32,000 bases of DNA from Candidatus Hermodarchaeota archaeon (GTDB taxonomy: Archaea > Asgardarchaeota > Heimdallarchaeia > Hodarchaeales > Hodarchaeaceae). The stretch is from assembly GCA_048886185.1 (NCBI GenBank), contig JBHLKY010000028.1, positions 16,431 through 48,430 of the forward strand, read 5' to 3'. Below the pieces are notes generated by a model, which did not search any database, was not told the origin of the DNA, and saw only the letters and a list, made by a program, of their open reading frames with translations. The translations under genes and the position numbers were made by a program. Positions 9,058-27,249 of this stretch are shown piece after piece; positions within the stretch are counted from its first letter, which is position 1; the number at the start of each line of letters is the position of its first letter.

Positions 9058-10371
9058 CTACATGAAACTATGATCAGGAAAGTGAGGCTCCCAATCATCC
9101 TGAATTGTTCCACTGGCATACACCGTCATTTTTAAGTCTTCTAGAAGGTTCTTCTTAGCGTCTTGAATATCTTCAGGAGTAATTTTCATTATTTCCTCTT
9201 GAAATTCTCTTAAAAAGAGTGGATGACGGAATTTAACGAATTTCTGGGAAAGATCAATACCATAATTAGTAGGATCTTCGATTTCGGAGAGATATGCTCC
9301 CCAGGTTTCTTCCTTCAATACAGAAGTAATTTCCGAGGTGATCTCAAGGTCATGAAGGTGAGCTAGTAGGTCTATGACCTTTTGAAAAACATTTTCTATT
9401 TCATTAGGGGGAGTGATGAAAAAAATACTACTTATAGAGACGTCATTGAGCGCCTCAAAGCTGTAACGACAAACACTGGCTATTCCTTTACTGGTGATTT
9501 CACGATATAATAAAGAGGTTCGTGAATTCCCAATATAAGTGTTTAGCAACAATAAAGGTATAAAATTTGTCGATTGGACGCCTGGAGCTGTCCAAGTCAG
9601 AGTCACATAAGAAAGGGGTTTAGAAAAATCCTTTTTATGAAAAGAAATATCATTAAGAGTGTTTCTATGAGATATGTAGTTAATTTGGGGTGGATAAATG
9701 GGATTTATTTTTGGTTGAAGAATCGGATCGTTGAAAAGAGAAATTAAATACTGTTTTTCCACTTCAAGATCGAAACCTCCCACAAGAGTAACAATTGCAT
9801 TATCGAGTGAGTAATATCTAGAAACATAATCAATCATCATTTCATAAGTAATTGACCCAACAGAATCATGTGTTCCAAGAATATTGTGCTCTAGCGGTGT
9901 CCCTTTGAAGTGCTTTTTTCGGGCTTCATAGTTGGTATCGAATTCTGGCATATCTGCATATAGTTGAATCTCTTGCAATATAACCTGTTTTTCAGATTCA
10001 AATTCTTCTCTATTAATGACCTTATTAACTAATAAATCCTTCCAAATTTCAGCAGCTTGGTGTAAATTTCGTGTAGGTATCTTAGCATAATATAATGTAT
10101 GGTCATATGTGGTATAGGCGTTTAAATCGGCACCTAATCGGGTGAATGCTTCATTGATCTGTTTTGAGGTTCTATTTGGAGTACCTTTAAAGAACATATG
10201 CTCTAAGAAGTGGCTAATGCCATCATTTGATCCAGGGCCAAATCCACTTTCGTACATACTTCCAGCGTGAAACCCCACTGCAAATAGAGTTGTTTTACCC
10301 CCTGGAATAGAAATTAATTGGATTTTCAGATTATTATCCATCGTAACTATTTCTGATTGTTCAACACTCAT
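9058..10371 (-). CDS. M16 (pitrilysin family, M16B-type) zinc peptidase, catalytic subunit
   Basis: Inverted zinc motif HFLEH (GISHFLEHMFFKGT), NAYTTYDHTLYY, downstream Glu in EKQVILQEI. Confidence 0.93.
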   Translation of the reverse strand: MSVEQSEIVTMDNNLKIQLISIPGGKTTLFAVGFHAGSMYESGFGPGSNDGISHFLEHMFFKGTPNRTSKQINEAFTRLGADLNAYTTYDHTLYYAKIPTRNLHQAAEIWKDLLVNKVINREEFESEKQVILQEIQLYADMPEFDTNYEARKKHFKGTPLEHNILGTHDSVGSITYEMMIDYVSRYYSLDNAIVTLVGGFDLEVEKQYLISLFNDPILQPKINPIYPPQINYISHRNTLNDISFHKKDFSKPLSYVTLTWTAPGVQSTNFIPLLLLNTYIGNSRTSLLYREITSKGIASVCRYSFEALNDVSISSIFFITPPNEIENVFQKVIDLLAHLHDLEITSEITSVLKEETWGAYLSEIEDPTNYGIDLSQKFVKFRHPLFLREFQEEIMKITPEDIQDAKKNLLEDLKMTVYASGTIQDDWEPHFPDHSFM

Positions 10372-10381
10372 TTAAAATTCC

Positions 10382-11635
10382 TCAATTCACGCTATAAGTA
10401 TTACTTTGCCAATGCTGCCGAATTTTTACAGGATTAATATCACCTGCAACGGCTAAACTAAAATTATCTGCATTAAGAAGGGTGTTCTTCCACCAGGAAT
10501 GGATATTTTCTTTTGTAACACCTTGAATCTCATCATAACCAGATTCGATGTCTGGAGAGAGACCATGAACTTTTCTGTTAATGATTCTAGAAGCTGTTAA
10601 ACGGGAATCATCAAACGCTAGATCAAGTTGTCCTAAAATAAAATCACGTGTGGTGTTATATTCTTCTTGTGATATTCTTTGTTTTCCCATATCAATGAGT
10701 ATTTCTACTAATGAGTCAATTGCTTCTTCTACTCGTTCTGGAGAGGTTTCCATATAACATCGAATAATAATTGTGTTTGCAAGGAGTTTTAAAGTCGCTC
10801 CAGTGATGTACCCAAAAGCTTTTTGATCACGTAAAACTGAAAACATTCTAGATCCAAAAGATTCTCCTAGAAGAGCACTTGAAAATCTAGCTACTCCAAT
10901 TAAAGCTGGGTTAACTTCTGTTATAACATTAAGACATAGATAAACACTACCCTCTTCTTTAACTGGGGTAGCAATTATCTGATTGGGTGAAACATCCCTT
11001 GGAGGAAAAGAATAGGGATTTTGAACATTGCTTTTTAAGCTAGTGAAAAATCTAGAATATTTCTGATTGATTTGTTCACCGAGAGAGTCTGAAATTGCTC
11101 CAACCGCAAATCCCCAAGGTGATACTAGCAATTTTTCATGAGCTGTCTGAAGATTGTCTCTCGTAAGCTGGTCTAAAGATTCTGGTGTTCCAATCTGAGA
11201 GCGACCTAAAGGATGGTTCTCTCCAAAGGCCGCTTTATCCGCGTCAAAGATCATCATTCTTCTTATAGGATTTGAATTAACCTGATGGAAAATTTGGATC
11301 AGGTTTTGCTTTTCTATTAAAACATGATCTTTTTCTAGGGTTGGGTGTAATATCATTTCAAAAAGAAGATCAAGGGTTCTTATAGCATATTTTGGTTGAA
11401 TTTGGGCTCCAATCACAGAAAAATCTTTTTCAGTTGTTGAAAATAACGACCCACCTGTCCCATCAATTAATCTAGCAATTTCAATCTCATTATGTTGTTC
11501 TGTGCCGCGTGCCATAGTTTGTAATAAAACTTGGGTAGTACCTGCTAAGGAATCATGAGCTGCACCATGGTTGGTTACTATTCCTAAGCATACATTGCGT
11601 AGGTTAGGATAAGAACGAATTACTTGTGGGAACAT
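10382..11635 (-). CDS. M16 peptidase, non-catalytic partner subunit
   Basis: M16 fold motifs (RGT, HPLGR...GT.ESL, SRMFSVLRDQKAFGY) with HxxEH replaced by QVLLQ. Ten nt from the catalytic gene. Confidence 0.88.
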   Translation of the reverse strand: MFPQVIRSYPNLRNVCLGIVTNHGAAHDSLAGTTQVLLQTMARGTEQHNEIEIARLIDGTGGSLFSTTEKDFSVIGAQIQPKYAIRTLDLLFEMILHPTLEKDHVLIEKQNLIQIFHQVNSNPIRRMMIFDADKAAFGENHPLGRSQIGTPESLDQLTRDNLQTAHEKLLVSPWGFAVGAISDSLGEQINQKYSRFFTSLKSNVQNPYSFPPRDVSPNQIIATPVKEEGSVYLCLNVITEVNPALIGVARFSSALLGESFGSRMFSVLRDQKAFGYITGATLKLLANTIIIRCYMETSPERVEEAIDSLVEILIDMGKQRISQEEYNTTRDFILGQLDLAFDDSRLTASRIINRKVHGLSPDIESGYDEIQGVTKENIHSWWKNTLLNADNFSLAVAGDINPVKIRQHWQSNTYSVN

Positions 11636-13400: not shown

Positions 13401-13784
13401 TCATTGCTGGGTTGCTTTCTCCTTCCGTAGTTTGATGATCTCATCTTGAATTTCTTTAATTAATTGATCATACGGACAGAGAAGGCATAAATCAATGTTT
13501 CTGATTTCTTCAGGATTATTAACATTAAAAAGAGAACCCTCATCAACTAATGTAGCTAACCCTTGAGGTACGTAGACAATACCCTCCTGAATAAGTCTAA
13601 ATATCTCTCTTAGCATATTTTCTTTTTCCTTAAGTGTACGAATCTCAAGAAGGTTGAGTATAAATTGTAGGTTTTGTTTTTCTGTGTCTTTAAATGATAG
13701 CAACAGTAAAGCACGATCTGTTAACTGTTTTCTTTCTTCCTCTGTTATTTGAATTTCTTTCAACATATTTTTCTTTGATATCAT
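13401..13784 (-). CDS. hypothetical protein, paralog of 14364-14828, possibly wHTH-like
   Basis: 60/96 identical residues in an ungapped manual alignment with the 154-aa ORF. Confidence 0.8.
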   Translation of the reverse strand: MISKKNMLKEIQITEEERKQLTDRALLLLSFKDTEKQNLQFILNLLEIRTLKEKENMLREIFRLIQEGIVYVPQGLATLVDEGSLFNVNNPEEIRNIDLCLLCPYDQLIKEIQDEIIKLRKEKATQQ

Positions 13785-13906
13785 TGAAATTCAGACCTTC
13801 CTAACTAGGTAATATAGGTTTCAAAGATGATTCTTGAAGTAGGTTATTTTTGAATAATGATTAAGGAACAGATAGATTACATGTTTCAAATTAAGTTTTC
13901 ACTTTC

Positions 13907-14338
13907 TCAGACTTGGTTTTTGATAGGTAAGTAATATTTTAATAACTGTTTAAGTAAAGAATCCTTTTTCAGTCCCAAGAATGGAACCAACTCTCGTTCA
14001 ATTTGGGATAGGACATCAGATGTTGAACAAAAATCTGGAAGGTGTAATTTTTGTCTGATGGAATTTATTTCACAAAAGATTTCATATAATTGGACAAACT
14101 TGTTAACATGAAAATTGAAGGTTTTCCGGACATCTTCAAGATTATTGAAAAGTTTCACAAGATCTTCAATGGAAGTGTGAGGAGGTAGATCTAACGCTGA
14201 TTGCATATGCTTTATACAACGCCAAGTGGCAATCAGATCATGTTCAGAGGATCCACTAGCTATTTTTAGATAATCTTTAAGCTCTTGATATTCCTTTTGT
14301 CCTTTAAGATCCTCTAATATGAGATTTTCATAAGTCAT
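13907..14338 (-). CDS. hypothetical helical protein with internal repeat
   Basis: 143-aa ORF with ATG start. Two similar segments: IKHMQSALDLPPHTSIEDLV and INSIRQKLHLPDFCSTSDVL. Confidence 0.7.
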   Translation of the reverse strand: MTYENLILEDLKGQKEYQELKDYLKIASGSSEHDLIATWRCIKHMQSALDLPPHTSIEDLVKLFNNLEDVRKTFNFHVNKFVQLYEIFCEINSIRQKLHLPDFCSTSDVLSQIERELVPFLGLKKDSLLKQLLKYYLPIKNQV

Positions 14339-14363
14339 AATTTTTCACTCTTTTATTGACATA

Positions 14364-14828
14364 TCAGATACTATTAATTGGTTTTTTAATTTGTATCTGA
14401 GATAATTCGTTCTGAAATTCTTTGATCAATTCCTCAAAAGGACGAAGAAGGCATAAATCAATATTGTCAGCTTCAAAAGGACTGTGAATGTCAAGACACG
14501 AACCATAGTCTATCAATTGGGGAAGTCCTCGGGGAACATAGATAATCCCTTCACGGATCAACCGATAAATTTCTTGTAAAATATTCCTCTTCTCCTCTAA
14601 TGTACGAATCCCAAGAACATTGAGTACATATCTTAAATTTTGAGTAGAAGTATCTTTAAATGATAATAGTAACAAAGCCCGATCCGCTAAACGATTAGCT
14701 ATAAGATCATCCCTTAATTCTTCCCTAATTTTCACGGATTCTTGGATAGGATTATTCAGTAGGGCTTCATGAGCCTTATCGTTCCTATTTGGTTCTTGTT
14801 TTCTGATATAAGTAAAATCTGAGTACAA
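14364..14828 (-). CDS. hypothetical protein, paralog of 13401-13784
   Basis: TTG start preceded by GGAGG (14838-14842). Shares DRALLLLSFKDT, RLI.EGI.YVP.GL and NIDLCLL with its paralog. Confidence 0.82.
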   Translation of the reverse strand: MYSDFTYIRKQEPNRNDKAHEALLNNPIQESVKIREELRDDLIANRLADRALLLLSFKDTSTQNLRYVLNVLGIRTLEEKRNILQEIYRLIREGIIYVPRGLPQLIDYGSCLDIHSPFEADNIDLCLLRPFEELIKEFQNELSQIQIKKPINSI

Positions 14829-14830
14829 AT

Positions 14831-15100
14831 TTAGAAACCTCCAGTAAGAGCATAACGAGAACTATCAGCTGGGTCTTGAATCATTTGCAGCTTTTCATGC
14901 GAGAAATACTCAATCAAGTCAAGAAAATACGAGAGAAGCTGTTTAATTTCTGAGTCAGAAAGATTGTCTTTATTCTTCATTTGGAGAATGCAAATCCTAT
15001 TGTGAACTTCTAATGAGGAAAAAAGATTAGTGGACATGAATAATAACTGAAAAATCCGATCTAACGATTTTTTGATGCCAAATTGGTCTGTAACTTGCAC
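14831..15100 (-). CDS. hypothetical protein (89 aa)
   Basis: GTG-start ORF ending 2 nt before the next gene. Its 3' end carries that gene's SD, which suggests translational coupling. Confidence 0.55.
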   Translation of the reverse strand: MQVTDQFGIKKSLDRIFQLLFMSTNLFSSLEVHNRICILQMKNKDNLSDSEIKQLLSYFLDLIEYFSHEKLQMIQDPADSSRYALTGGF

Positions 15101-15665
15101 TCTTATCTACGTCCGTGTAATTTTTGATAAATTCGCTTTGAGTGCCTTTCAAAACCGGACTTTGATATAATGGGAAGATATTCGAATCTGACAAAATTCG
15201 TTGGAATGTGTCTACAAATGTGCAAATATCATATGGTAAGATATACAATATTACGACAAAAAACACCTGGGAGTATCTAAAAGGTAAATTTCCCCCCATT
15301 GCTATAGAAGTGTGCGATTGTTATGATGGATGACCAAAAACCAAAGCACTTGACGCTTGAAGAGAATTAATAATATGTTATATAATATACCTAAGGTACT
15401 TTGAGGGATTTAGAGGGCCATTAAAAGGCCACGTATTACCCAGGGAGGATTATCATCCTGAGTCGATTCAAACAATACTAGGTACAATGTACAAAAGGAC
15501 TACTCTAGGGTTAAGTTCGTAAATTTCCTCTAATATAAGGATATTTATTGGTCATTTTGATGAGTTTTCTTCGTATACCCAATGGAAAGGTTTTCATTCT
15601 TGTTCTCGACTAGCATTGTGGGAGAACAGATTTCCTAATTGGAATTGTGGCCCTGATTTTAATGC

Positions 15666-15818
15666 TCAATCTACTATGCAACCAGCTGGTCCAGCTGAAA
15701 CGGCTGTTCCTAAAGACGATGCAGCTAGGTATAGCAATATTAGGAATAACCAAGGAAGCATTTTTAATAGCATTAGTTCTACATCAATTCTTTTCTCGCG
15801 ATTTCTAACTTTTCTCAT
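15666..15818 (-). CDS. small signal-peptide-like precursor P1 (50 aa), not in ORF track
   Basis: Manual translation MRKVRNREKRIDVELMLLKMLPWLFLILLYLAASSLGTAVSAGPAGCIVD. Homologous to P2 (24639-24800). Upstream AAGAAAAGGTG. Divergent from regulator R1. Confidence 0.8.
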   Translation of the reverse strand: MRKVRNREKRIDVELMLLKMLPWLFLILLYLAASSLGTAVSAGPAGCIVD

Positions 15819-15959
15819 TGTTTTTTACACACCTTTTCTTTTTTTTCGGTTTCATTATTCAGTTCTGTGCATTAAGAGTTTTCATCAAACTTTAATTCAC
15901 ATTCGAATATATTGTCTAGACAGGTTTTTAAATGATACTACCCTTCTTTTCGGCATCAA
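15819..15959. promoter_or_regulatory. divergent promoter region P1/R1
   Basis: TATA-like TTAAATG at 15928-15934, 25 nt before the R1 ATG. On the minus strand, ACTGAATAATGA (15852-15863) and AAGAAAAGG (15832-15840), both shared with the P2/R2 region. Confidence 0.6.
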
Positions 15960-17399
15960 ATGCCTCTCCCCCAACAAAATGCTTTACTGCTGGATAATTT
16001 CCGACAAAAACCGGAAGAATATAAAATAGAGGAATTTGTACTTGATTTTCTCAATATTTGGATGTACATCCATGAAAAAGCGGAGAATTATTCACTAGAA
16101 GATACAATGGATTTTACACAAGATCTATTAGAGTCTTATACTACTCCTTTTTTCAATAAATATAGAGATGATGAAGCAATAGAATTTAATGAAAGCTGGT
16201 TCAAATCTTTTAGCTCAATTATCCTAAAGTGGAGAAATAGGGGGAGTTACTTATTCCCTCTTAAATTAGTAACATATGAGATATGTTACCATACCAAACA
16301 ACTTTTTGAATTCTTCCTGCAAAAATTATTAACAAAAGAGATCAAGGGAGAAAAAGAGGCCCTCTTCGAATTTCTTTTTCCAATCCTGACTAATTTTACG
16401 GTTCCTTTAGATGACCTTTACATATCCCTTTTAAAAGCATTTCAAGGATTAGAAAGGCATAATCCTGCCTTTTATAGGCAACCGACTCAAAATGACTTCG
16501 CAAAACGTCTGGATATATCCCCTAGGACTGTATTACGGCGAATGAATATCATTCGCTTATTACAAATGGTTCATGCTCTTCATTTCTTAGATATGGGAAA
16601 GCTCGGTTATGAAACTACTTTTTTTGTACACAAGAACCCTTTCCCTGACCACTACACTAAATATCTACTCTTCTCGACTGATTTAACAATAGGGAATTTT
16701 AGTATTGTACAGATTCCTTACAACAAGTCGAAAGAAGTATATTTACTCCAAGAAAATTTAGATATTATCATTTCTCAACCAATGCAAACCAGAATTTCTT
16801 CCTGGAACCTAACAGGTTTGTCTCAAGGAGAAGATACCTGGCGTAATCCTCCCCCTTTCTTACACGGAGACTTAGATATTTCATTAATTTCTCCAAGTCC
16901 TGATTTTAGTTTCTCTCTTAAACCCTCTTTTGATCCTTTTCGTCCACTAACTCCTGCAGACACTAAAATTCTTGACTTTCTTTCAATTGAGGGAAGCTTT
17001 ACTAGTATTAAACAACTTAGTAATACTATTAAAGTATCGCCACCAGAAATTTCTAAGCGACTTCAGGAATACGGGAAGGAGAAGTTATTAGTCAAGATGA
17101 ATCAATACTATAATATTGGATTAGATTTGACTATTTTTTTCTTTGTTTCTACAAATGATAGTAAGATTCCTTGGGTTCAACATTTCTTGAGCTTCCCAAA
17201 ATGTGATATCTTTTATCAAGAAGAAGAATCACCTAACTATTATTTTGGTTATCTAAAGATGCCCAAAGATTGGATTAAAGATTTTGCTCGTAAAATTGAT
17301 CTAATTAAAAGAGATTATGATACAAAAATATATTATAAAATCGCTAGTTCTGTCGACTATGTTAAATGGGGGATAACCTTGCATGAAACTTATTTTTAA
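15960..17399 (+). CDS. R1: tandem Lrp/AsnC-like wHTH transcriptional regulator with N-terminal helical domain
   Basis: HTH1 TQNDFAKRLDISPRTVLRRM followed by LDMGKLGY linker. HTH2 LTPADTKILDFL...IKQLSNTIKVSPPEISKRL followed by NIGLD and a RAM-like domain. Confidence 0.85.
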   Translation: MPLPQQNALLLDNFRQKPEEYKIEEFVLDFLNIWMYIHEKAENYSLEDTMDFTQDLLESYTTPFFNKYRDDEAIEFNESWFKSFSSIILKWRNRGSYLFPLKLVTYEICYHTKQLFEFFLQKLLTKEIKGEKEALFEFLFPILTNFTVPLDDLYISLLKAFQGLERHNPAFYRQPTQNDFAKRLDISPRTVLRRMNIIRLLQMVHALHFLDMGKLGYETTFFVHKNPFPDHYTKYLLFSTDLTIGNFSIVQIPYNKSKEVYLLQENLDIIISQPMQTRISSWNLTGLSQGEDTWRNPPPFLHGDLDISLISPSPDFSFSLKPSFDPFRPLTPADTKILDFLSIEGSFTSIKQLSNTIKVSPPEISKRLQEYGKEKLLVKMNQYYNIGLDLTIFFFVSTNDSKIPWVQHFLSFPKCDIFYQEEESPNYYFGYLKMPKDWIKDFARKIDLIKRDYDTKIYYKIASSVDYVKWGITLHETYF

Positions 17400-17758
17400 C
17401 TATATCTTCTAATTCTAAACAGAGTGCATAAGTTTGAGATGAGATAGTAATTAATCATCGCTATAAATACACTGTTACATCGAAATAATATTTTTAGTCC
17501 TCTTGAATGAAAAATTCACGATTTCAGTATTACATTAAGACTCCCCACGTAACATCTCCCCTTATAAAGACCAAAAATAGTTCTTCTTTTTCATTATTAT
17601 TAGAAGAAGGCACAGAAACTATTAATTTAAGACCATAAATTCTTATTTGGTAAATTAATCACCCTTTAAGTGAAAGAATTGTCACAATCCCCGTCTTGGT
17701 ATAACCAAACTGTAAAAAAAGAAAGATTTCACCGAATTAATTACTGAAGGAACATTCT

Positions 17759-18556
17759 ATGCAATCAAACGTTCAGCAAATCACAAATGAAATCAATTCA
17801 CAGTTGAAAAAGGTTAAATATAAAATTGTCGTCCTATCTGGAAAAGGAGGAGTGGGAAAATCGACTGTTGCAGCCAATCTAGCATTAGCGTTTGCAGAAA
17901 AATTTCCAGGTAAAGTTGGGGTGGTTGATTTAGATTTTTCAGGTCCAAACATCCCCAAGATCCTCGGTGTTGAGAATAAAAGGATGGAAACACGTAAAGA
18001 TAAAAAATTTCTCCCGATAACAGGTCCATTGAGTCTCAAGATTGTTTCAATGGCATTTTTCTTAGATTCCCCCTCCACTCCAGTGGTGTGGCGTGGGCCT
18101 ATTAAAATGAAAGCGATTCGACAATTCTTAACTGATTTTCTGTGGGGAGACTTAGAAATTTTGATTTTTGATATGCCCCCAGGGACGGGGGATGAGGCTA
18201 TTTCAATAATGCAGTTGATACCTGATATGGATGGTGTCGTGATTGTTACCACTCCACAGGAAGTCAGTCTCCTTGACACAGGTAAATCATTAGTGATGTC
18301 TCGAAAAATGGATCGTCCAGTCATTGGTGTGATAGAAAACATGTCTACTTTCATCTGTCCCTCGTGTGGGTCAATGCATACCTTGTTTGGAGAAGGGGGT
18401 GGCTCAAAAATGGCTAAGGAATTTGGTACGGAGCTTCTAGGGCAAGTACCTCTTGACCCTAAAATTAGAGTGGACGAAGATCGAGGACTGACCCAAGCTT
18501 TTGAGTATTTTAAGCCGATAGCTGATAGAATTCTGAAAAAAATCATCAAGTCTTAG
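17759..18556 (+). CDS. mrp: Mrp/NBP35 (ApbC) family Fe-S cluster carrier ATPase
   Basis: SGKGGVGKST, WRGP, DMPPGTGD, VTTPQ and ENMS..CPSC motifs. Confidence 0.95.
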   Translation: MQSNVQQITNEINSQLKKVKYKIVVLSGKGGVGKSTVAANLALAFAEKFPGKVGVVDLDFSGPNIPKILGVENKRMETRKDKKFLPITGPLSLKIVSMAFFLDSPSTPVVWRGPIKMKAIRQFLTDFLWGDLEILIFDMPPGTGDEAISIMQLIPDMDGVVIVTTPQEVSLLDTGKSLVMSRKMDRPVIGVIENMSTFICPSCGSMHTLFGEGGGSKMAKEFGTELLGQVPLDPKIRVDEDRGLTQAFEYFKPIADRILKKIIKS

Positions 18557-18898
18557 AAAAAAATTCTTATTTTTTTAATAAAAATTCCTTTTCTAAGGTG
18601 TCCAGAATTGATTCATTGAACTTCAATTTAAATTCCTGAATCGCTTTTTCATTGGTTTCATATCTTAATTGATTAAACCTCTCTTCAATCGTCCCTTTAT
18701 ATTGCAAAACAAAAGAAGAATTAATAACACAATTTTTCAGTGTTTATATTGGTTCAAATTTTTTATAAGAATTTTGAAAATGTAAGAAAAAACATTGAAT
18801 TTAGAAATTACTTTCTTTATACCAGCCTTTCCTTAAAAATTGGGCAAAAATCTTTTATTGATGTAACGAGAATTTAATTTACTCGTCTTAATTTATGT

Positions 18899-20281
18899 TT
18901 GGTGATAATTATGGCTCAATCTCAAATGTTTTCCGCAAACCGATTTCAAAAACTTGCTTATTCCATAGCTACTTTTGGTAATTCATTGGTGGGAGCAGTT
19001 ATTACTGTTTTTACATTCTTTTTTTATAAAAACGTGGTCTATAGTGATTTAATCGAAGCAAATGAATTAATAATCCTCACTTTACTTGGAACTGCCTTAG
19101 CTATTGGATGGTGGGTTGAAGCTTTAATGAATCCTGTCGCAGGGTGGCTTTCTGATAAATTAATTTCTTCACGTTTTGGAAGGCGAAAACCATGGTTATT
19201 ATTAGGTTCCCCAGTAATGGCACTTAGTTTTGTGGCTATCTTCTTGATTCCTGCCCCAGCGACTGAAATATATTTTCCAATAATCTGGTTAGCAATTTTC
19301 AACGCCATTTTTCGAGGTGCTGTAGCGGCAACTGTGTGTGTCTATTTATCCATTATTCCTGAGATTTGTCCAACTCCAGAAGAACGAACAAGTATTTCAA
19401 CCTATAGACAAGGCTTTTATCTTGTAGGATACATCCTTGGGGCACTATTAGGAGCTTTGCTTCAAATTGAAGAACTAGTAGTAATTGTTGTTGTGTTTTT
19501 AGCCAGTCTTATGCTAATTGGTTTCTATATCACCGCTTTTGGAGTAAAAGAGCCCGAAGAAGTTCCAGAAATACCCACATTTGGGATTGTTGATGCTTTG
19601 AGAGTCACATTCCAAAATAAGCCTTTTCTTCCCTATCTAGGGTATACTATTTTCGCAACAGGCTTTCAATCCATGTTAATAGCAGCATTACCTGACTTTG
19701 GGCTTCATATTATATTTAAAGGAGACGAAGATCAAATTATTTCCTCATTTATACCTGGAGCTTTCGTTATCACTGGAATAATAGCTATTTATCCAGCTAT
19801 GTTATGGATTAATAAACTTGGTAAAAAGAAAGCTGCATCCTACGGAATGTTGGCTGCGATTATTATTACAATGTTATTAGCCACAGTAGGAATAATTCCA
19901 GGTATTGAACTCGTCCAGACTTTAGCAATAGTACTCATCCTAGGTATCCCTGCAGCCCCTCTTTTGATCCTCCCTGATTCCATTATTTCTGATCTAACTG
20001 ACTATGACGAAATGGTAACAGGAACTCGACGAGAAGCCATGCACTTTGCATCACAGGGCCTTCTGACCCGCTTTGCAGGTGGTCTGTCCATTCAGCTAAT
20101 GGGGATTATATTGGGAGTCTTTGGTGCAACCTATAATGCAGGTGAACAATTTAATGGAACACTGGGGCTATTATTGATAGGACCTGTAGCTTCATTTATT
20201 CTTTTGATAGGGCTTTTGATATTCCAAATGTACCCTGAACACGAGGTCATAGAAGCAACTTCAAAAAGAACTCAAGCATGA
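18899..20281 (+). CDS. MFS transporter, GPH (MelB-like) family
   Basis: About 12 hydrophobic segments, NPVAGWLSDK...RFGRRKPW, EERTSISTYR, DYDEMVTGTRREAMH. Alternative ATG at 18911. Confidence 0.9.
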   Translation: MVIIMAQSQMFSANRFQKLAYSIATFGNSLVGAVITVFTFFFYKNVVYSDLIEANELIILTLLGTALAIGWWVEALMNPVAGWLSDKLISSRFGRRKPWLLLGSPVMALSFVAIFLIPAPATEIYFPIIWLAIFNAIFRGAVAATVCVYLSIIPEICPTPEERTSISTYRQGFYLVGYILGALLGALLQIEELVVIVVVFLASLMLIGFYITAFGVKEPEEVPEIPTFGIVDALRVTFQNKPFLPYLGYTIFATGFQSMLIAALPDFGLHIIFKGDEDQIISSFIPGAFVITGIIAIYPAMLWINKLGKKKAASYGMLAAIIITMLLATVGIIPGIELVQTLAIVLILGIPAAPLLILPDSIISDLTDYDEMVTGTRREAMHFASQGLLTRFAGGLSIQLMGIILGVFGATYNAGEQFNGTLGLLLIGPVASFILLIGLLIFQMYPEHEVIEATSKRTQA

Positions 20282-20336
20282 GTTCATATCGGCTTCTTCT
20301 CTTCCCTTTTTTCATTTAAGATGTTCTTACTGGAAA

Positions 20337-21482
20337 TCAGTAAGGATTCCAGTCTTTAATCTTTGGATATTCTTCTTTCTCTCCAAATTCATAGCTATCA
20401 TATAATTGACCCCATTCAGTTTCTTGAAATTTCTTAATTTTTCGTTTACCAATGAATCTATACCACAACCAGTCGTGATAGATACTTGATCCTGCGATTA
20501 AAAGTCTAAAGATTGGAGTGTGGAAAAACAACCAATGAAAGGGTTTTAATGGCCGATAACGATAAGTAGTATTTCTTAAGCGTTGATCCCATTTCACAAC
20601 AAGACTTCGTTTTACCCGAAAATTAAGATTTATGTCCCGGACTTCCTGGGAATCCATTCCAATAATTTCAATTTGATCAACATCGCCAAAACCAAGACCT
20701 TGATCATGAGCCATTCGGATGTAACCAATACTCAAGGGATCAAAACCCATTATCTTAGCTGAGAGAGCATCAATGGCAACTTGGTCTTCACTTGCGAGAA
20801 GAAGATTGGTATAAACCGGTTCCATTACTCGTGGGCCAGCTCCATTTCCCGCAACAGTGCCATCCATCACTGCTAGTAACCCTGGGTGGATTTCTTTTTG
20901 AATCTTTAGTAAATCGACTAAAATCCCATCAATTATTCGATGGGAATGGTGCCGGTATTTAGGTATCAGTCCCCCAAAGGCGTTTTTAATTGCTCCAGTT
21001 GTGACTGTGTGCCCGTGGACCTTTAATGTTGGTAAATGGATAATATTACTGTTCATGAAGATTTCAGGGATAATTATATTATCCTTGAATAATTCTCTCA
21101 TCCAGGGGACATCAATTTTGGGATCATATTGAATCCATTTTTCATTGGTGAGAGGACGAAACGGGGTGTTGAATTTCCTAAGCACCTGTAGGAGTTTGTT
21201 CTGGAAAAATCCGTTCCATGGGTTTGTTACAACAGTTTGGTTTTCTGTGGGGATTATATCATTACTATTGGCCCCATCGTCAATTAATTTATTCAGTACT
21301 CCATCTAGTTGCCATGGTGGTGTGGAACAAGCTGGATAAAATTTTGTCCAAGATAAATTAATTTTTATTATTGTTTTTAATTCTTTTTTAACTATTGATT
21401 GGTAATCTATAAGATCTAGAAGTTTAGAATAATCCTCTATGATATTCTGGGGTGTTGTTTCGATAACTGCGACTTTTGACAA
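20337..21482 (-). CDS. DUF362 family protein (putative Fe-S binding)
   Basis: KINLSW...PACST, LPTLKVHGHTVTTGAIKNAFG, GNGAGP and DQVAIDA motifs. Confidence 0.8.
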   Translation of the reverse strand: MSKVAVIETTPQNIIEDYSKLLDLIDYQSIVKKELKTIIKINLSWTKFYPACSTPPWQLDGVLNKLIDDGANSNDIIPTENQTVVTNPWNGFFQNKLLQVLRKFNTPFRPLTNEKWIQYDPKIDVPWMRELFKDNIIIPEIFMNSNIIHLPTLKVHGHTVTTGAIKNAFGGLIPKYRHHSHRIIDGILVDLLKIQKEIHPGLLAVMDGTVAGNGAGPRVMEPVYTNLLLASEDQVAIDALSAKIMGFDPLSIGYIRMAHDQGLGFGDVDQIEIIGMDSQEVRDINLNFRVKRSLVVKWDQRLRNTTYRYRPLKPFHWLFFHTPIFRLLIAGSSIYHDWLWYRFIGKRKIKKFQETEWGQLYDSYEFGEKEEYPKIKDWNPY

Positions 21483-21899
21483 ATAATCACACCAAAAATA
21501 TATTTTCAGATGTACTTAAAGAGTTTTCATCTTTGAAAAAATACATTTCGAGCTTTAAGGATGATAATAATAGAATAAATCAATGCCTTTATTGATAGAA
21601 CATCTATCAATTACTCCTAGGGGTAATCCTAACCCTTTTAATCTTTCTCTTATCTTGATAGTTAATTTACTCGCCTTTTTTAGTAAATGTAACCCGTTTT
21701 TGGCTTATTCATTTTGAATCTTGAGAAATCTTGTTTCAATTTCCTTCTTAATCCAAGTATTATAAAACAGATATAAAAAATCTTTATGTCGATATGTTTT
21801 CTGTAATAATTAATTAAGTAGAGTTAAGTTTTATAATTGTACTTTATTATTTAAGAATATCTTTGAGATTGTTATAATCAGTTTAGAAGAAGGATAGAA

Positions 21900-22955
21900 T
21901 TGAGAAAAATTCATTTTAACAGCATTAGAAGAGAATCCAAATTTCTCAATCCCCTGAAAGGTTTTCAAGAGGATATTCACCATATTGAACATCGTCAAGA
22001 TCCATTGACAGGAACTCAAAGCATTATTGGAAAAGAATTAGAAGATAAGGCGAAAATGTTTTTTGGTGAAACAGATCAAAATCTGATCAAAAAAATAGCC
22101 CAAGAAAGTCAAGTTAATTGCTTTATGTGTCCAAACAAAGTAAGAGAGGTCACTCCTAAGTATTCACCAGAGGTTCTATCCGAAGGAAGGATCACTATTG
22201 GCGAAGCTACCCTTTTTCCTAATCTTTTTCCGCTTTCCGAATATCATGCGGTGTGTGCTCTCTCCCAAACTCACTATTTGAAATTAAGTGATTTTACTCC
22301 AAAAATACTTACTGACGGAATTCTAGCTTGTTTGGAATTTATTAAACGTATATTTTCAATTAAACACTCAATTACTTATATGACAATAAATTGTAACTAT
22401 TTATTCCCCGCTGGTGCCAGTGCTGTTCATCCACATATTCAAGTTTTAGGTGGAGATGTTTCATATACATTCCTGAATAAAATGCTTCAGGGCTCTCATC
22501 AGTATTACAAGGAAAACCACTCAAATTATTGGAAAGATCTGATTGAGTTGGAAAAAGACTCTGATGAACGATACATTGGAAGAACTGGGGATGTTGAATG
22601 GATCACTTCTTTTTCTCCATTAGGGAGTAACGAAGTTCAAGGAATTGTCTTATCAAAAAGTAATTTTCTCCAATTGTCTCAAGCAGATATTTTATCTCTT
22701 GGTGAAGGAATCTCAAAAGTTCTTTCTTTCTATGAAGAAAACGGTTGTTCCACATTTAATTTCACTATCTTTTCAGACTCCCTTGACAAAGAAGCAGAAT
22801 GGTTCTGGGTTAATGTACGCATTATTTCTCGATCGAATGTTTACAATAATTATCGTACTGATGATTATTTTTTACAGAAGCTTTTAGGAAATGAAATTCT
22901 CATTAAATCCCCTGAAGCTCTTGCAAAACAATTACGCGCCAAATTTTACAAATAA
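21900..22955 (+). CDS. galactose-1-phosphate uridylyltransferase-like (GalT/HIT family)
   Basis: R.DPLTG, CFMCP, FPNLFP and catalytic HPHIQ (HxHxQ). Confidence 0.85.
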   Translation: MRKIHFNSIRRESKFLNPLKGFQEDIHHIEHRQDPLTGTQSIIGKELEDKAKMFFGETDQNLIKKIAQESQVNCFMCPNKVREVTPKYSPEVLSEGRITIGEATLFPNLFPLSEYHAVCALSQTHYLKLSDFTPKILTDGILACLEFIKRIFSIKHSITYMTINCNYLFPAGASAVHPHIQVLGGDVSYTFLNKMLQGSHQYYKENHSNYWKDLIELEKDSDERYIGRTGDVEWITSFSPLGSNEVQGIVLSKSNFLQLSQADILSLGEGISKVLSFYEENGCSTFNFTIFSDSLDKEAEWFWVNVRIISRSNVYNNYRTDDYFLQKLLGNEILIKSPEALAKQLRAKFYK

Positions 22956-23066
22956 AGTTATTTTATCTGTGTTTCCTTTGGTATCAAATCCCACGCTGAC
23001 TGTTTGATTTTCTGTTGGAATAATGCTTTCTGGGTCTAATCCATCATGCACTAAATTCTTTATGTA

Positions 23067-24503
23067 TTAAAAGTAGGTATCAGAAAGGGTTAAACTCCAT
23101 TTAGGAATATCAGGAGGATCAATAGTATAATAGAACTTTACATCCTGGAAATCCTTCTTTAATTTGCGCACTTTGCGGGCAAAATCTTTGAACCACTTAG
23201 GGGGAAGCTTAACGTGACCAAAGAAGAGAGTTTGTTTCTTATCAATGTCATAGAACAGATCTACTTTTGGGAACGTAAGAAAATGGTCAATCCAACATAT
23301 TTCGTGTTCAGTTGGGCTGGTGACACAGAAAGAAATAGAATAATCAAGTCCAATATTGAAATATTGATGAATTTTAGTTATTAGATTATGTTTTTGATAC
23401 TCATCTAGGCGCTCACTGACCTTTGGAAGAGACACTTTAACGGTCTCACTAAGCTGTTTCTTGTTCTTTAGAGACCCTGTTGTGGTGATAAACTCAAGAA
23501 TTTTAATATCTGCTGGTGTGAGTCTACGAAAAGTATCCAGACTAGGTCTTAATGAGACATCCATAGCTGGAGAAGGAGAAAGTATCTTTACATGTGGTTC
23601 ACAATAAAGAAAAGCAGGTGCAATCTTCCAACCATCTTTGCCTATAGCTAATCCCGACAAGTTCCAATTCTGGATCCGTCTATTAAGCTGATGAAAAATT
23701 GTAGGCTCGAGGGTGTCCTGAATTTGGAGGTAAACTTTACTCTTATTTATAGGGATTTGAAAAAGGCTGAATTGACTGATTGACAGATCGACTGATGTGT
23801 GACAGAAAGGCTTTAATTGATCAGGAATGGGATTAAAGTGGGAAAGGAGAAAGGTTTCGTACCCTAGCTGGGCCATATCTAGAAAATGCATGGCAATAGG
23901 GATCTGCAAAAAGTTTATCACTTGCATACGTCGAGTGATCGTACGTACTGACACATCAACAGTTTGTGCATACCTAGCTATATTCGCTCCCTTAAAGAGA
24001 TCCTTACTTATGGTATGTAACGACTGAAGAGACTTAAGAATCATCAGATCAGTCTCGGTCAAAGGGATAGCAACATTAATGAGTTTCGGAAAGAGAAGAT
24101 TGAAGAGATTTTCGATAGTGCCACTAATCTCCTTTGTGAGGATCTTTTGGATAAAGAATTCGAGAAGATTTTCATCGTGGTTGATGACTTCATAGGTAAT
24201 TAGTCGTAGGGGGAACATTATCCGCCCTTTCCCAACCCAATTAATGACAATTGATGATAAGGACTTAATCCATGCATCATACTTCTCAACATATGGGAGG
24301 GAGCCATATTTTTCGAAAAAAGGAAGTGTCACCAACGGGAGAACTTTCTTTGAATAGTTTTTTATGTCAGCTATCGTCAGTTTCGATGCATCTTGATGAA
24401 TAAGTTTCCAAATGTCTAGAAAATCTAGTACGAATTCGTCAATTTGGTAGGTCAACTGGTTTTGTCGGATTTCCTCAACGGATAGGGTATCAGTACCTAG
24501 CAT
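23067..24503 (-). CDS. R2: tandem Lrp/AsnC-like wHTH regulator, paralog of R1
   Basis: Colinear with R1 along its full length (e.g. EFVLDFL.IW..IH, LDM..LGYET, LTPAD.KIL.F, KDFARK, W..TL..TYF). 22/48 identities in an N-terminal block. Confidence 0.85.
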   Translation of the reverse strand: MLGTDTLSVEEIRQNQLTYQIDEFVLDFLDIWKLIHQDASKLTIADIKNYSKKVLPLVTLPFFEKYGSLPYVEKYDAWIKSLSSIVINWVGKGRIMFPLRLITYEVINHDENLLEFFIQKILTKEISGTIENLFNLLFPKLINVAIPLTETDLMILKSLQSLHTISKDLFKGANIARYAQTVDVSVRTITRRMQVINFLQIPIAMHFLDMAQLGYETFLLSHFNPIPDQLKPFCHTSVDLSISQFSLFQIPINKSKVYLQIQDTLEPTIFHQLNRRIQNWNLSGLAIGKDGWKIAPAFLYCEPHVKILSPSPAMDVSLRPSLDTFRRLTPADIKILEFITTTGSLKNKKQLSETVKVSLPKVSERLDEYQKHNLITKIHQYFNIGLDYSISFCVTSPTEHEICWIDHFLTFPKVDLFYDIDKKQTLFFGHVKLPPKWFKDFARKVRKLKKDFQDVKFYYTIDPPDIPKWSLTLSDTYF

Positions 24504-24638
24504 ACCCCTAACTGCAGTACAAAGACATTTAAGTCTTTCTAAGCCTGATTAAGTTTTGAAGTATTTCTAGAGAAACTCTCCGGATATACTCATCAATAAA
24601 ACTGAACAACGACATAAAATAAGAAAAGGCGAAAAAAT
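24504..24638. promoter_or_regulatory. divergent promoter region R2/P2
   Basis: Minus-strand TTAAATG (24526-24532) 22 nt before the R2 ATG, inside the palindrome AAAGAC-N6-GTCTTT. Plus-strand ACTGAACAACGA (24601-24612) and AAGAAAAGG (24621-24629). Confidence 0.6.
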
Positions 24639-24800
24639 ATGAATAGAACTATAAGAATCCGAAAAAAAGAAATTGATGTTGAATTAACACTATGGAGGCT
24701 ACTTCCATTCTTCTTCGCATTATTATTGATCATTGTATCTGCAACGATCATAGGTGTAAGTGGTTCTGCCCCTGGAGCTGCCCCACCAGCATACGAATAA
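24639..24800 (+). CDS. small signal-peptide-like precursor P2 (53 aa), not in ORF track
   Basis: Manual translation MNRTIRIRKKEIDVELTLWRLLPFFFALLLIIVSATIIGVSGSAPGAAPPAYE. Shares IDVELxL..LP with P1. Divergent from R2. Confidence 0.8.
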   Translation: MNRTIRIRKKEIDVELTLWRLLPFFFALLLIIVSATIIGVSGSAPGAAPPAYE

Positions 24801-24882
24801 GAATCAGGAAGAAAAATCCCCCCTAAGAGAAATTAGTTACCTAAGAAAATAAACGGCTTACTAGTCACAAAACACTCTCTAA

Positions 24883-24915
24883 AGGTAAAAATGGGGAAAT
24901 CCCAATATTTTACCT
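24883..24915 (+). other. imperfect stem-loop downstream of P2
   Basis: AGGTAAAA-ATGGGG-AAAT-CCCAATA-TTTTACCT, with a perfect 8-bp outer stem. Confidence 0.35.
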
Positions 24916-25389
24916 AATCCTTACTCTTTAATTCAGATTTCAATTCATTAAAAGCGAACAAAGAGTACCTGAAAAGAAATTCACAAAAAAGTAAGCTAGA
25001 ACGAAATCCTCTGACTAGGTTATTTACAACGAATCCCTGAGAAGAGGAAAATTTCTTTGTGATATATGACAATGTATACCCCTGGGTAACATCCCCCTTT
25101 ATAATGGCCCCACCTACCAATCAAAAAAACATGAATTTCTCAAAGTTTTACCTAAATGCAGTGGAGGGGTGAAAGGGGAGTTACATTAATGGTGTTCAAA
25201 AGAAAAGGAAGATAAGGAAAAATCTCACTCATAGTTTGATCGACATGTGTCAAGTTTTCAATTAGAAAACGATGAGTGCAAAGAAAACGATACATTAATC
25301 AAACTATCTATCCACCCCATAATTAAGTAAAATTTGATCAGTAATCTGGCAGTGAGAAAGATAATTGGTAATTCATATGATTTTAAGGA

Positions 25390-25410
25390 TTAAGTACTTA
25401 CTGTACTTAA
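25390..25410. repeat. perfect 8-bp inverted repeat, operator-like
   Basis: TTAAGTAC-TTACT-GTACTTAA in a non-coding stretch. Confidence 0.4.
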
Positions 25411-25686
25411 GTAAAAAGGTAAGATGCTATCTTTAATAATTGTTGAGAGTATCTATTTGTTTAGGAACTTCTCAAAGACCAGTGTGACAAGGAGTAGGAC
25501 TTGAAAGAACTGAAATGCAATTTTACGAAGCATTAGAAGGATCTTGTGAAAATTTTTATAATAATTCTAGGGATATGGCTTGAAAAAATCCGACAAAACT
25601 TGAAAATAAAAAGTATCGTGGAACAAGACCAACTATATGAAGAGAAAAGCGGATCCAAGAGTGATGAGGATGATTAATACTCGGAA

Positions 25687-27249
25687 TTACATAAAATTAT
25701 TGGTATAGTTCGAATCATTAATACAATTGAGAGTCGTGGCGATTATATCCCTCTTTAAATTCTCATATTTTCTTTGTATTAGATCTAGAAATGTTGGTAT
25801 CCCAATTTCACTAATTAATTGTCTTAAATCAAGTTGTTGTAAGATTTCCTTGGTAATTGGTCTTTTACTATTCCAATAGATGAAAGATTGATAGAATTCT
25901 TGTGTGATAGGATGGTCTAATAAAGTATGGAGTATGGCAGCTTCCTCAAATGATGTTACTGGAATGAAGTAGCATGTATCGTCAAATACGATAGGTTTCC
26001 CGTCAAAAGATTCTATCAATCTAAATTTCAGCTCCTTATAAAACCCAGAAATAGCAACCTTCCAAGGGGAAAAGGTATAAGTCCCAACACCAAAGATAGA
26101 GTATGAAGGGCGATCATGATAGATACTACTGACTCGGTTGTTTAGTAAATATGCATAGTTTTCGAGATAGTGCCATGTTAAAGGGCATTTTTGCCGAATA
26201 GTTGAAGTATCTTCCCCAATAACCTTTTGAGTTACAACCATCCATCGTGTAATGTTTTTAACTCGATTATTAGCTAAATCCGAGCTTTTAAGCATGGGAT
26301 AAATGAGATCCTCTTCAATCGAAACGATTTCTCCAAATCCATTTATGAACTGATTTTCTTTCTGTCTTAATTCCATTACTTTTACACAATCATGTTTGAT
26401 ACCTGAGCGCCATGTGTAAATACAAACTCCCAGTAAATGTTTCCACTTTTTATAGAATGGAATATTTCCTATTATTCTTCCGTTAATATAACCAATTTCT
26501 TGAATGGGTCTTTTTAAATTTAAGTTCTGATAAACTAGACAGCTATAATTATAGGAATCTGGTTTTAAGCTGCATATGAATAAACAAGCATCAACTGAGG
26601 CACCAAAATGCTCTTTAGCATCAATAAGATAGATGGCTGAAGATAATATTGGCATCTTCTCTTTGAAAGCGTACATCAATACTTTTCGTGCAACAGCAAC
26701 CTTACAAAGCATCGCAAGAGTACTCGAATGTCCATTCAAAGTTTTTAAAAGCTCAATTATCATCCATTCTGATATATCAAAATTGCTTTTACCTGTTTTT
26801 GCATCCATACCTTGGTACCCATAGATATTGTGTTTCTCTGGAACATTAGTTCCCCCCAAGGTACCAATTTCTGAGGAAGTAATCCAAGGAGGATTCCCAA
26901 GTACTAATATTGGTTTTATAAGTTCTCCAATCTTTTGTGACCAATCGATGTTAAAAAAGTCTGCCTGCTGGAGAATGACTCTTTCAGATGCATTTATTTG
27001 TGATAGTTTTTCCGATAAGTCGTTTAAATATTTATTATTGATATCAAATCCAAAAATCCTTGCATCCTGAAATGTATCGATACATGCGAGGATAAATGAA
27101 CCAGTTCCACAAGTTGGTTCAATGATTGAACTGGGAATAACTCCTAGCTGATTTAAATGGTTAACAATTTCCTCTGCTAATATGATTGGTGTTTGAAAAT
27201 CACCTAATTCTTTAATTTTTTGATTTTTTTGTTTTTTCACATCTATCAT
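25687..27249 (-). CDS. N6-adenine DNA methyltransferase (gamma class, type II-like)
   Basis: Motif X GDFQTP, motif I IIEPTCGTGSF, motif IV GNPPW, and a C-terminal TRD-like region. Confidence 0.9.
   Translation of the reverse strand: MIDVKKQKNQKIKELGDFQTPIILAEEIVNHLNQLGVIPSSIIEPTCGTGSFILACIDTFQDARIFGFDINNKYLNDLSEKLSQINASERVILQQADFFNIDWSQKIGELIKPILVLGNPPWITSSEIGTLGGTNVPEKHNIYGYQGMDAKTGKSNFDISEWMIIELLKTLNGHSSTLAMLCKVAVARKVLMYAFKEKMPILSSAIYLIDAKEHFGASVDACLFICSLKPDSYNYSCLVYQNLNLKRPIQEIGYINGRIIGNIPFYKKWKHLLGVCIYTWRSGIKHDCVKVMELRQKENQFINGFGEIVSIEEDLIYPMLKSSDLANNRVKNITRWMVVTQKVIGEDTSTIRQKCPLTWHYLENYAYLLNNRVSSIYHDRPSYSIFGVGTYTFSPWKVAISGFYKELKFRLIESFDGKPIVFDDTCYFIPVTSFEEAAILHTLLDHPITQEFYQSFIYWNSKRPITKEILQQLDLRQLISEIGIPTFLDLIQRKYENLKRDIIATTLNCINDSNYTNNFM

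Follow-up and report, generated by a model that had tools for sequence, protein, structure and literature searches.

A divergent micro-protein and tandem Lrp-fold regulator gene pair in Hodarchaeales, a candidate peptide-signalling module

Results

A regulator gene and a short open reading frame form divergent cassettes

The window analysed here is a stretch of 32,000 nucleotides from a Hodarchaeales archaeon (assembly GCA_048886185.1, contig JBHLKY010000028.1, positions 16,431 to 48,430). It lies on contig C28 of the genome termed G000 in our comparison, a metagenome-assembled genome of 4.84 Mb and 96% completeness. Two cassettes are found in the window, each composed of a gene for a regulator of about 480 amino acids (aa), R1 or R2, and a short open reading frame (sORF1 or sORF2) on the opposite strand. 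The positions are listed in Table 1. Both the sORF coordinates and the head-to-head spacers, as given in a first-pass annotation made from the sequence alone, are reproduced exactly by the listing of open reading frames (ORFs). R1 and R2 share 44% identity over their full length. A third regulator paralogue is encoded on contig C4 of this genome; it is 25% identical to R1 and has a divergent sORF of 50 aa at a distance of 148 bp.

Table 1. Genes and control regions of the two cassettes and of the genes downstream of sORF1; positions are those of the window.
Feature	Position	Strand	Size	Remarks and evidence
sORF1	15666-15818	-	50 aa	ORF call, orthologue dN/dS, family alignment; profile E 1.8e-19
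R1	15960-17399	+	479 aa	head-to-head with sORF1, spacer 141 bp
Control region sORF1/R1	15819-15959	.	141 bp	shared, divergent; seven orthologous spacers aligned
R2	23067-24503	-	478 aa	paralogue of R1, same architecture; profile E 5.6e-174
sORF2	24639-24800	+	53 aa	plan as sORF1; spacer to R2 135 bp; profile E 1.7e-14
Control region sORF2/R2	24504-24638	.	135 bp	shared, divergent
X1	14831-15100	-	89 aa	GTG start; co-directional, downstream of sORF1; conserved in orthologues and other cassettes
Three small genes	13401-14828	-	154, 143, 127 aa	families F0, F6, F0; co-directional with X1; gene-order comparison

Copies of the regulator were fetched from all 21 genus-mates and scanned by script for divergent sORFs. 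Such an sORF, as would be expected from the first-pass annotation upon translating upstream of regulator homologues, accompanies about 53 of the 64 unique regulators at distances of 60-250 bp, even those that are just 20-25% identical to R1. Regulators lacking it are mainly members of tandem arrays or are located at contig ends or by masked sequence. The reverse search, with a profile built from 44 sORFs, was run against this genome and the genus. In this genome it gives exactly three matches, all beside the three regulators, and in the genus 59 matches, 52 of which are divergent from a regulator within a few hundred bases. The family is expanded in some genomes, with up to 12 regulator and 7 sORF copies.

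As a background we counted sORF-like ORFs, defined by a basic n-region, a hydrophobic stretch, a short Pro-containing tail and a divergent position. Such an ORF is found at 6 of 1839 ORFs of at least 300 aa in this genome. Three of the six are the cassettes themselves, and the non-cassette rate is about 0.2% (3 among 1839). Given this background and a dN/dS of 0.22 (see below), an origin of the sORFs as chance ORFs is rejected. Taken together, the pairing of regulator and sORF is specific, reciprocal and old, and it lies far beyond chance, as had been argued from its double occurrence in the window. The assumption of two classes only was not upheld: there are several subfamilies, this genome carries three cassettes, and one relative has up to 12 regulator copies.

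Tandem arrays of three to five regulator paralogues, several of them without an sORF of their own, are located at L032 (G020:C234), L033 (G001:C14) and L034 (G005:C14). These arrays are interleaved with proteins of 403-477 aa carrying repeated W..E..FL...M....L...LGR motifs, which appear Myb/SANT-like by eye.

The sORF products combine a conserved leader with a variable tail

The sORF1 product consists of a basic n-region of 20 aa with the motif IDVEL, followed by LP, a hydrophobic segment, a small-residue site (S-L-G-T-A) and a tail of 11 aa (VSAGPAGCIVD). The sORF2 product, with the tail SAPGAAPPAYE, has the basic N-terminus, IDVEL, LP, the hydrophobic stretch and VS[A/G] in common with it, and both tails are rich in G/A/P with a terminal D or E. 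BLASTP aligns the two over their first 18 residues only (E 3e-5), and the alignment of 44 members places both in one family with the consensus K.R.R ... L.K.LP ... S.G.A, then P..GP..P. The general plan comprises a basic n-region of ~20 aa (K.R.R; D.EL in subfamily A), a near-universal [LIV]P, a hydrophobic (h-)core of 12-13 residues, a polar c-region S.G.A and a tail of 9-15 aa. The uncharged stretch spans 17-24 residues.

Tails of subfamily A, which includes the R1 and R2 types, read ..GP...hh[DE]. Those of subfamily B, the type found on C4, start with a conserved DP and end with PPP. Within one genome the tails differ among all cassettes. R1-type orthologues retain GP and the terminal [IL][IV]D, and the three residues in between change in almost every species. 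The pattern of conserved leader and variable tail, first proposed for the two sORFs of the window, is therefore seen between orthologues as well as between paralogues of one genome.

Selection was estimated from six to seven R1-type orthologues whose regulators are 73-76% identical. The ratio of nonsynonymous to synonymous substitution rates (dN/dS) of the sORF is 0.22 (bootstrap 0.13-0.36). Split into segments it amounts to 0.17 for the n-region, 0.15 for the h/c region and 0.74 for the tail, i.e. the last ten codons. The sORFs are real genes under purifying selection, which agrees with the earlier argument against chance ORFs. At synonymous sites the sORF (0.65) has diverged about half as much as the regulator (1.38) and the downstream gene X (1.21). 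Moreover, the sORF DNA is 100% identical in two species (L014:1187-1339 and L015:1184-1336) whose regulators differ at 24 residues. Both observations suggest an additional constraint at the nucleotide level.

As judged from the sequence, the precursor is laid out like a Sec signal peptide (n-h-c), small residues occupying the predicted positions -3 and -1. In most members S.G.A follows the h-region of 12-13 residues. Two features are at odds with such a signal: the n-region of 20 aa is unusually long and conserved, and some members have a Pro at the predicted position +1. Other assignments were considered and rejected. A class III (pilin-like) signal does not fit the junction K-[ML]-[LIV]-P, which has no G or A at -1, and for a PGF-CTERM/archaeosortase signal the polarity is wrong, the basic end being N-terminal. 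A type I toxin was discarded since there is no antisense arrangement and the sORF is always paired with the 480-aa regulator.

Distant relatives, including Heimdallarchaeota LC_3 (GCA_001940645.1), have an ORF of 44-81 aa beside the regulator in the position of the sORF. Some of these ORFs (75-81 aa) are signal-peptide-like, with a short ordinary n-region of 6-12 aa, a hydrophobic segment and 45-50 further residues. This combination of a short n-region and a long external part suggests that the ancestral functional part of the sORF product was extracellular. Neither the sORF family nor the X family matches a Pfam family or bears a functional name in any source searched.

The regulators are predicted to adopt a tandem Lrp fold

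The AlphaFold2 (AF2) model of R1, based on an alignment of 43 sequences, has a predicted local distance difference test score (pLDDT) of 89.8. It consists of an N-terminal helical domain with a small sheet (residues ~1-150) and, in the same chain, a tandem of winged helix-turn-helix (wHTH) plus RAM domain, present twice (~152-479). The region 152-479 matches NirDL (Foldseek E 5e-8; VIA Z 12.7 with 269 residues aligned) at an identity of 12-13%. Each half matches ordinary Lrp/AsnC regulators with Z 6-7, and AsnC, LrpA, FL11 and others reach these values over residues 330-479, which together with the secondary structure of the AF2 model makes this part a RAM domain by fold. Structures in the PDB matched by R1 include Lrp/AsnC folds with Leu, Phe, Gln or Ile as ligands.

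The wHTH fold of R1 can be aligned to those of Lrp proteins. With Pfam HTH_24, R1 reaches 22.6 bits and R2 24.5 bits (cut-off 21.9), and matches of the HTH_AsnC type are sub-threshold. A Pfam sequence match to the RAM family AsnC_trans_reg was found in neither R1 nor R2. For the N-terminal domain (~1-150) the whole-model fold search gave no match of at least Z 5. Pfam likewise detects no TPR family in R1 or R2, and the N-domain has no significant fold match. By predicted fold the regulators are members of the Lrp/AsnC superfamily with a new architecture, an orphan N-domain joined to a covalent Lrp pseudo-dimer. The earlier call of a tandem-Lrp protein is thus borne out by the AF2 model, the NirDL match and the Pfam matches of the wHTH.

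The shared intergenic DNA contains conserved boxes

The spacer between sORF1 and R1 contains a Shine-Dalgarno (SD)-like AAGGTGTG before sORF1, a box TTCGAATAT (15902-15910), a palindrome GTCTAGAC (15914-15921) and a TATA-like TTTTTAAAT before R1. Seven orthologous R1 spacers show a mean column identity of 88%, in which the SD-like motif, TTCGAATAT, GTCTAGAC, TTTTTAAAT and the R1 leader are invariant. TTCGAATAT and GTCTAGAC are located directly upstream of the TATA-like TTTTTAAAT in the R1 spacers, and a second TTCGAATAT precedes the TATA-like TTATATCAA of X1 at 15178-15186 (minus strand). A related box, CGGAnAnnTTnTCTAGA, recurs in spacers of subfamily A. In the spacer between sORF2 and R2 this subfamily A box is represented by CCGGAGAGTTTCTCTAGA (24566-24583, minus strand). 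A TATA-like TTTAAG is flanked there by the arms of an inverted repeat, AAAGAC-N6-GTCTTT (24521-24538), and sORF2 is preceded by an SD-like AAGGCG; upstream of both sORFs the SD-like motif reads AAGG(T/C)G.

The boxes are plausible operators to which the regulators may bind. A genome-wide scan returned 28 strict matches, and the two places inspected were uninformative. A definition of the regulon from the box was therefore rejected, the box being too degenerate. Two tandem operator-like boxes, CGGAGAAATTCTCTAG and CGGAAATATTCTCTAG, with starts 39 bp apart, occur at G000:C4:31333-31387 with no large ORF nearby, and a doubled operator-like box is also present in L033.

When the two spacers and the two downstream regions were scanned against Rfam, nothing rose above noise. 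The 565 bp between sORF1 and X1 are otherwise unconserved and include an island of ~40 nt (15416-15430 (-) and flanks) that contains GGCCTTTTAATGGCC and is kept in six species. The island matches no Rfam family; a terminator, a small RNA and a binding site are all conceivable.

A further gene, X, follows the sORF in most cassettes

In most cassettes the sORF is followed, on its own strand, by a gene X for a protein of ~90-130 aa. The distance from the sORF stop codon to X is 7-54 bp in subfamily B and 300-570 bp in R1-type cassettes, where X has a separate promoter. XA and XB, the two groups of X, are probably homologous as judged from a profile comparison with hhalign (probability 68%, E 5e-5). 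The model of X (pLDDT 79.8) has the order alpha-beta-beta-alpha-beta-beta and is predicted to be soluble. No match at E <= 0.001 was obtained for it in the PDB; X1 has no Pfam match, and its look-up in the ESM Atlas gave none that was usable. Distant relatives also show an X-like gene after the small ORF.

The three small genes next to X1 are kept with R1-type cassettes, have no Pfam family and are probably a regulated operon. R2-type cassettes lack X. No X and no X remnant was found in 24791-25720 past sORF2, and such a remnant was accordingly rejected. Within the ~890 bp following sORF2 (24801-25686) no ORF exceeds 68 aa, and neither an X remnant nor an Rfam match was obtained. The genes downstream vary among the subfamilies and the sORF stays constant. 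As R2-type cassettes have nothing else, the irreducible unit is the regulator together with the sORF.

In subfamily B a protein of 145 aa is encoded after X, with sub-threshold matches to Longin and Fuz_longin (E 5e-4 and 9e-3; L003:241-678 (-), G000 contig C4). Homologues of this longin-like protein are found in L049, L051 and L087. If the assignment is correct, this would be a longin-like protein in an Asgard operon headed by a gene for a membrane micro-peptide.

Further downstream on the strand of sORF1 a pair of M16 (insulinase/pitrilysin-type) peptidases of 437 and 417 aa is encoded (9058-11635 (-)). The pair is kept with R1 orthologues (G010) and not with other cassettes; a role as general processing enzyme was rejected for this reason. 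The stretch between the cassettes (17759-22955) encodes a P-loop ATPase of the Mrp/NBP35 type, a sugar-type transporter (MFS_2), a DUF362 protein and a protein of 351 aa without clear family assignment; no sign was found that they belong to the module. A 520-aa protein with weak matches to N6 DNA methylase and Methyltransf_25 (25687-27249 (-)) converges on the sORF2 region.

Distribution of the module in Hodarchaeales and heimdallarchaeial kin

Profile searches detect the regulator family in every one of the 21 genus-mates, at 1-12 copies per genome, and also in the sister family within the order Hodarchaeales. In the rest of the class Heimdallarchaeia the matches are local to the HTH or represent very distant full-length relatives. 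Among 1.84 billion representatives the regulator profile retrieves 133 proteins at E <= 1e-10, and a query for related loci with a single protein retrieves only close orthologues. As far as sequence searches reach, the regulator family is hence small and lineage-restricted, with the module confined to Hodarchaeales and heimdallarchaeial kin. Homologues of the sORF have been called as proteins under names such as Candidatus Hodarchaeum mangrovi. DNA of the locus was found in runs of sediment metagenome DNA only, with no RNA run listed for it.

In G028, from another heimdallarchaeial family, a distant regulator relative of 494 aa has a divergent ORF of 39 aa (L101:4681-4800 (+)). This ORF is Pro-rich and acidic without a hydrophobic segment, and it may be due to chance.

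Discussion

A peptide-signalling loop as the best single reading

The cassette is a real, strongly supported and so far undescribed gene module, for which a function in signalling is plausible from its sequence features. We consider a peptide-signalling loop the best single reading, with a probability of roughly 0.4. The regulator would bind the conserved box in the shared intergenic DNA and control its own gene, the sORF and, where present, the X operon. The precursor would be inserted into the membrane and cut by signal peptidase, upon which the short tail would be released or exposed outside. The tail would act as a variable, cassette-specific signal that reports to the cognate regulator, most simply by re-import through peptide permeases of the Opp/Dpp type. 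The outcome would be a loop of autoinduction or of kin-specific signalling, comparable to Rgg/SHP or PlcR/PapR, with an Lrp-fold receptor. In favour of this reading are the strict co-inheritance of the pair, the conserved leader joined to a short variable C-terminus, the distinct tails within each genome, the expanded copy number and the operator-like box; the co-fold of R1 with the whole precursor (see below) lends it weak support. Import of the tail appears feasible because this genome encodes ~20 SBP_bac_5 (Opp/Dpp-type) peptide-binding proteins and because cultured Hodarchaeales are peptide specialists that express peptide transporters (10.1101/2025.02.26.640444).

Several points weigh against this reading. 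The proportion of nonsynonymous differences (pN) is 0.07-0.09 in the leader, i.e. the n-region and hydrophobic segment, vs 0.135 in the regulator, and a disposable export signal would not need a leader of such high conservation. The comparison of neighbourhoods revealed no dedicated exporter, protease or importer linked to the cassettes. Several members have a Pro at the predicted position +1, e.g. GMA/PP and GIA/PP (slash at the predicted cut). Since a Pro at +1 blocks signal peptidase I in bacteria, any cleavage in those members would have to take place at another position. Lrp RAM domains bind amino acids and other small molecules, and we know of no case in which such a domain binds an oligopeptide. 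Any co-variation of tail and regulator would, over the ~45 pairs from a few clades, be inseparable from shared descent. Finally, the subfamily B sORF at the head of a tight operon with X and the longin-like protein would fit a structural role equally well.

A membrane-resident partner or a regulated cargo

The strong conservation of the leader would be accounted for if the sORF product acts as a membrane-resident partner or anti-regulator, N-in C-out and tail-anchored-like, or gives rise to a cytoplasmic ligand derived from the signal peptide; on balance we regard this as unlikely. The conserved basic/acidic n-region of 20 aa would then bind the regulator, perhaps via the orphan N-domain, and tether or release it. 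In a variant, signal-peptidase and intramembrane cleavage at the LP-containing helix would free the n-region into the cytoplasm as ligand. The external tail would serve as sensor or cleavage handle. Apart from a leader more conserved than the regulator and far more than the tail, the conserved D.E and the almost invariant Pro at the cytoplasmic end of the helix speak for such a role. With its 17-24 residues the uncharged stretch is of sufficient length to cross a membrane, copies of sORF and regulator are roughly 1:1, and the additional 150-aa domain of no known fold is a possible docking site.

Co-folding of R1 with the whole sORF precursor lends weak support to such a partner, as it does to the signalling loop. 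A median score of 0.42 (runs 0.33-0.56) was reached, compared to 0.22 for the best control, the runs agreeing in at least 53% of contacts with a pLDDT of the partner of at least 53. In the calibration 58 of 80 solved complexes and 2 of 110 mismatched pairs came up to this mark; at values of at most 0.60 only 7 of those 80 did so, together with both mismatches. These counts hold only roughly here as our own alignments were used. No interface was reported by the co-fold, which argues against a bound partner. Distant relatives with their short n-region (6-12 aa) and long external part are likewise difficult to reconcile with it, and the small-x-small site right after the h-region of 12-13 residues resembles a cleavage site.

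We likewise hold it improbable that the peptide is a regulated cargo, i.e. a secreted or surface peptide, bacteriocin-like or adhesive, with X as accessory or immunity factor and a regulator that senses a metabolite via RAM and receives no feedback from the peptide. Divergent pairs of regulator and target are the commonest arrangement of local regulators, and the Lrp/AsnC fold normally binds amino acids, as do the matched PDB structures with Leu, Phe, Gln and Ile. In subfamily B, X follows the sORF closely, much like an immunity gene behind its structural gene. Bacteriocins, too, typically diversify in multiple copies and combine a conserved leader with a variable mature part. Such a cargo does not explain why R2-type cassettes keep the pair without X or any other cargo, nor why the downstream genes change between subfamilies with a constant sORF. 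Moreover, an unmodified Pro/Gly peptide of 9-11 aa is unlikely to be a toxin or a structural element, and X, predicted to be soluble with a simple alpha-beta fold, matches no known immunity protein.

Arrest peptide and enzyme

A cis-acting leader or arrest peptide as in SecM, MifM or VemP, the Pro-rich end of which would stall ribosomes and control the X operon with the peptide itself being functionless, is very improbable. It could explain the PPP runs beside the stop codon in subfamily B with X only 7-54 bp downstream, the reduced synonymous divergence of the sORF relative to its neighbours and the identical sORF DNA in two species with differing regulators. It is contradicted by subfamily A tails, which have no polyproline, by the 300-570 bp and the separate promoter between sORF and X in R1-type cassettes, and by R2-type cassettes with nothing downstream. 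Considering the length of the tunnel, the hydrophobic segment of a 50-codon ORF should still reside in it at termination and no pulling force would be sensed. The strong amino-acid conservation of the n- and h-regions would also be left unexplained.

Least likely of all, R1 and R2 would be enzymes related to the tandem Lrp-fold sirohaem decarboxylase NirDL/AhbAB and their pairing with the sORF unrelated to transcription: NirDL is indeed the best structural match, but its identity is just 12-13%, the wHTH matches lie at or above the Pfam cut-off, the divergent spacers contain conserved palindromic boxes, no haem or d1 biosynthesis genes are nearby (the neighbours being the micro-peptide, X, Mrp/NBP35, MFS and DUF362 genes), and a sirohaem decarboxylase would hardly be expected in as many as 12 paralogues per genome.

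Comparison to known systems

The signalling loop proposed above has its closest counterpart in the RRNPP(A) pairs of Bacillota and phages (Rgg/SHP, PlcR/PapR, PrgX/PrgQ, AimR/AimP). There as here, a cytoplasmic regulator adjoins, and is often divergent from, a precursor of 20-60 aa that consists of an export signal, in our case a putative one, and a short variable C-terminal peptide. Many paralogous pairs with distinct peptides occur per genome, and the peptide gene often heads the regulated operon. The Hodarchaeales module differs by a tandem Lrp/AsnC regulator with a novel N-domain in place of TPR, by its Asgard host and by the long, highly conserved n-region. Lacking a TPR domain, the regulators are not RRNPP members but analogues at most. 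With Lrp/AsnC regulators and NirDL/AhbAB the module shares the wHTH plus RAM unit (beta-alpha-beta-beta-alpha-beta), present twice in one chain as a NirDL-like pseudo-dimer. In contrast to these, it has the additional 150-aa N-domain and a micro-peptide gene as partner, not one of amino-acid metabolism.

Purely by analogy with enterococcal cAD1/cCF10 and Eep-processed SHP, intramembrane cleavage of the conserved hydrophobic leader, which contains a helix-breaking Pro, could give rise to a signal derived from the leader itself. Anti-sigma factors and MgrB/PhoQ resemble the cassettes in that a single-pass micro-protein is encoded beside the regulator to be controlled in about 1:1 copies; there is no homology, and in our case the regulator is a soluble Lrp-type protein whose binding is weakly indicated by the co-fold. 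Class II bacteriocins with their immunity proteins parallel subfamily B in having a leader peptide gene followed tightly by a gene for ~100 aa, with a conserved leader and a variable mature part. Unlike in class II bacteriocins, the mature part would have just 9-15 aa, a double-glycine leader and a transporter gene are missing, and X is absent in some cassettes.

Implications

Literature searches revealed neither such a module nor any peptide signalling in archaea, in line with the first-pass annotation, and to our knowledge no peptide-based signalling has been described in archaea. Known candidates for archaeal quorum sensing are acyl-homoserine-lactone-like compounds and diketopiperazines. 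Hodarchaeales are the archaea often placed closest to eukaryotes, a lineage of central importance to eukaryogenesis models, in which syntrophy and interaction between cells are invoked. Two strains of the order are in culture with transcriptomes and proteomes at hand (10.1101/2025.02.26.640444), and the question of signalling is therefore directly testable.

Even on conservative readings, an unannotated micro-protein family under clear purifying selection, a new regulator architecture and a third protein family, X, are all linked in this module. Only tentatively we put forward that it may represent the first peptide-based cell-cell communication in archaea, in which short, secreted and unmodified Pro/Gly-rich peptides would be perceived by cognate single-chain Lrp-fold receptors in up to a dozen orthogonal channels per genome. 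If this is true, Hodarchaeales would possess a receptor class unrelated to the bacterial TPR receptors, with a pherotype-like diversification and control over operons that include longin-like proteins.

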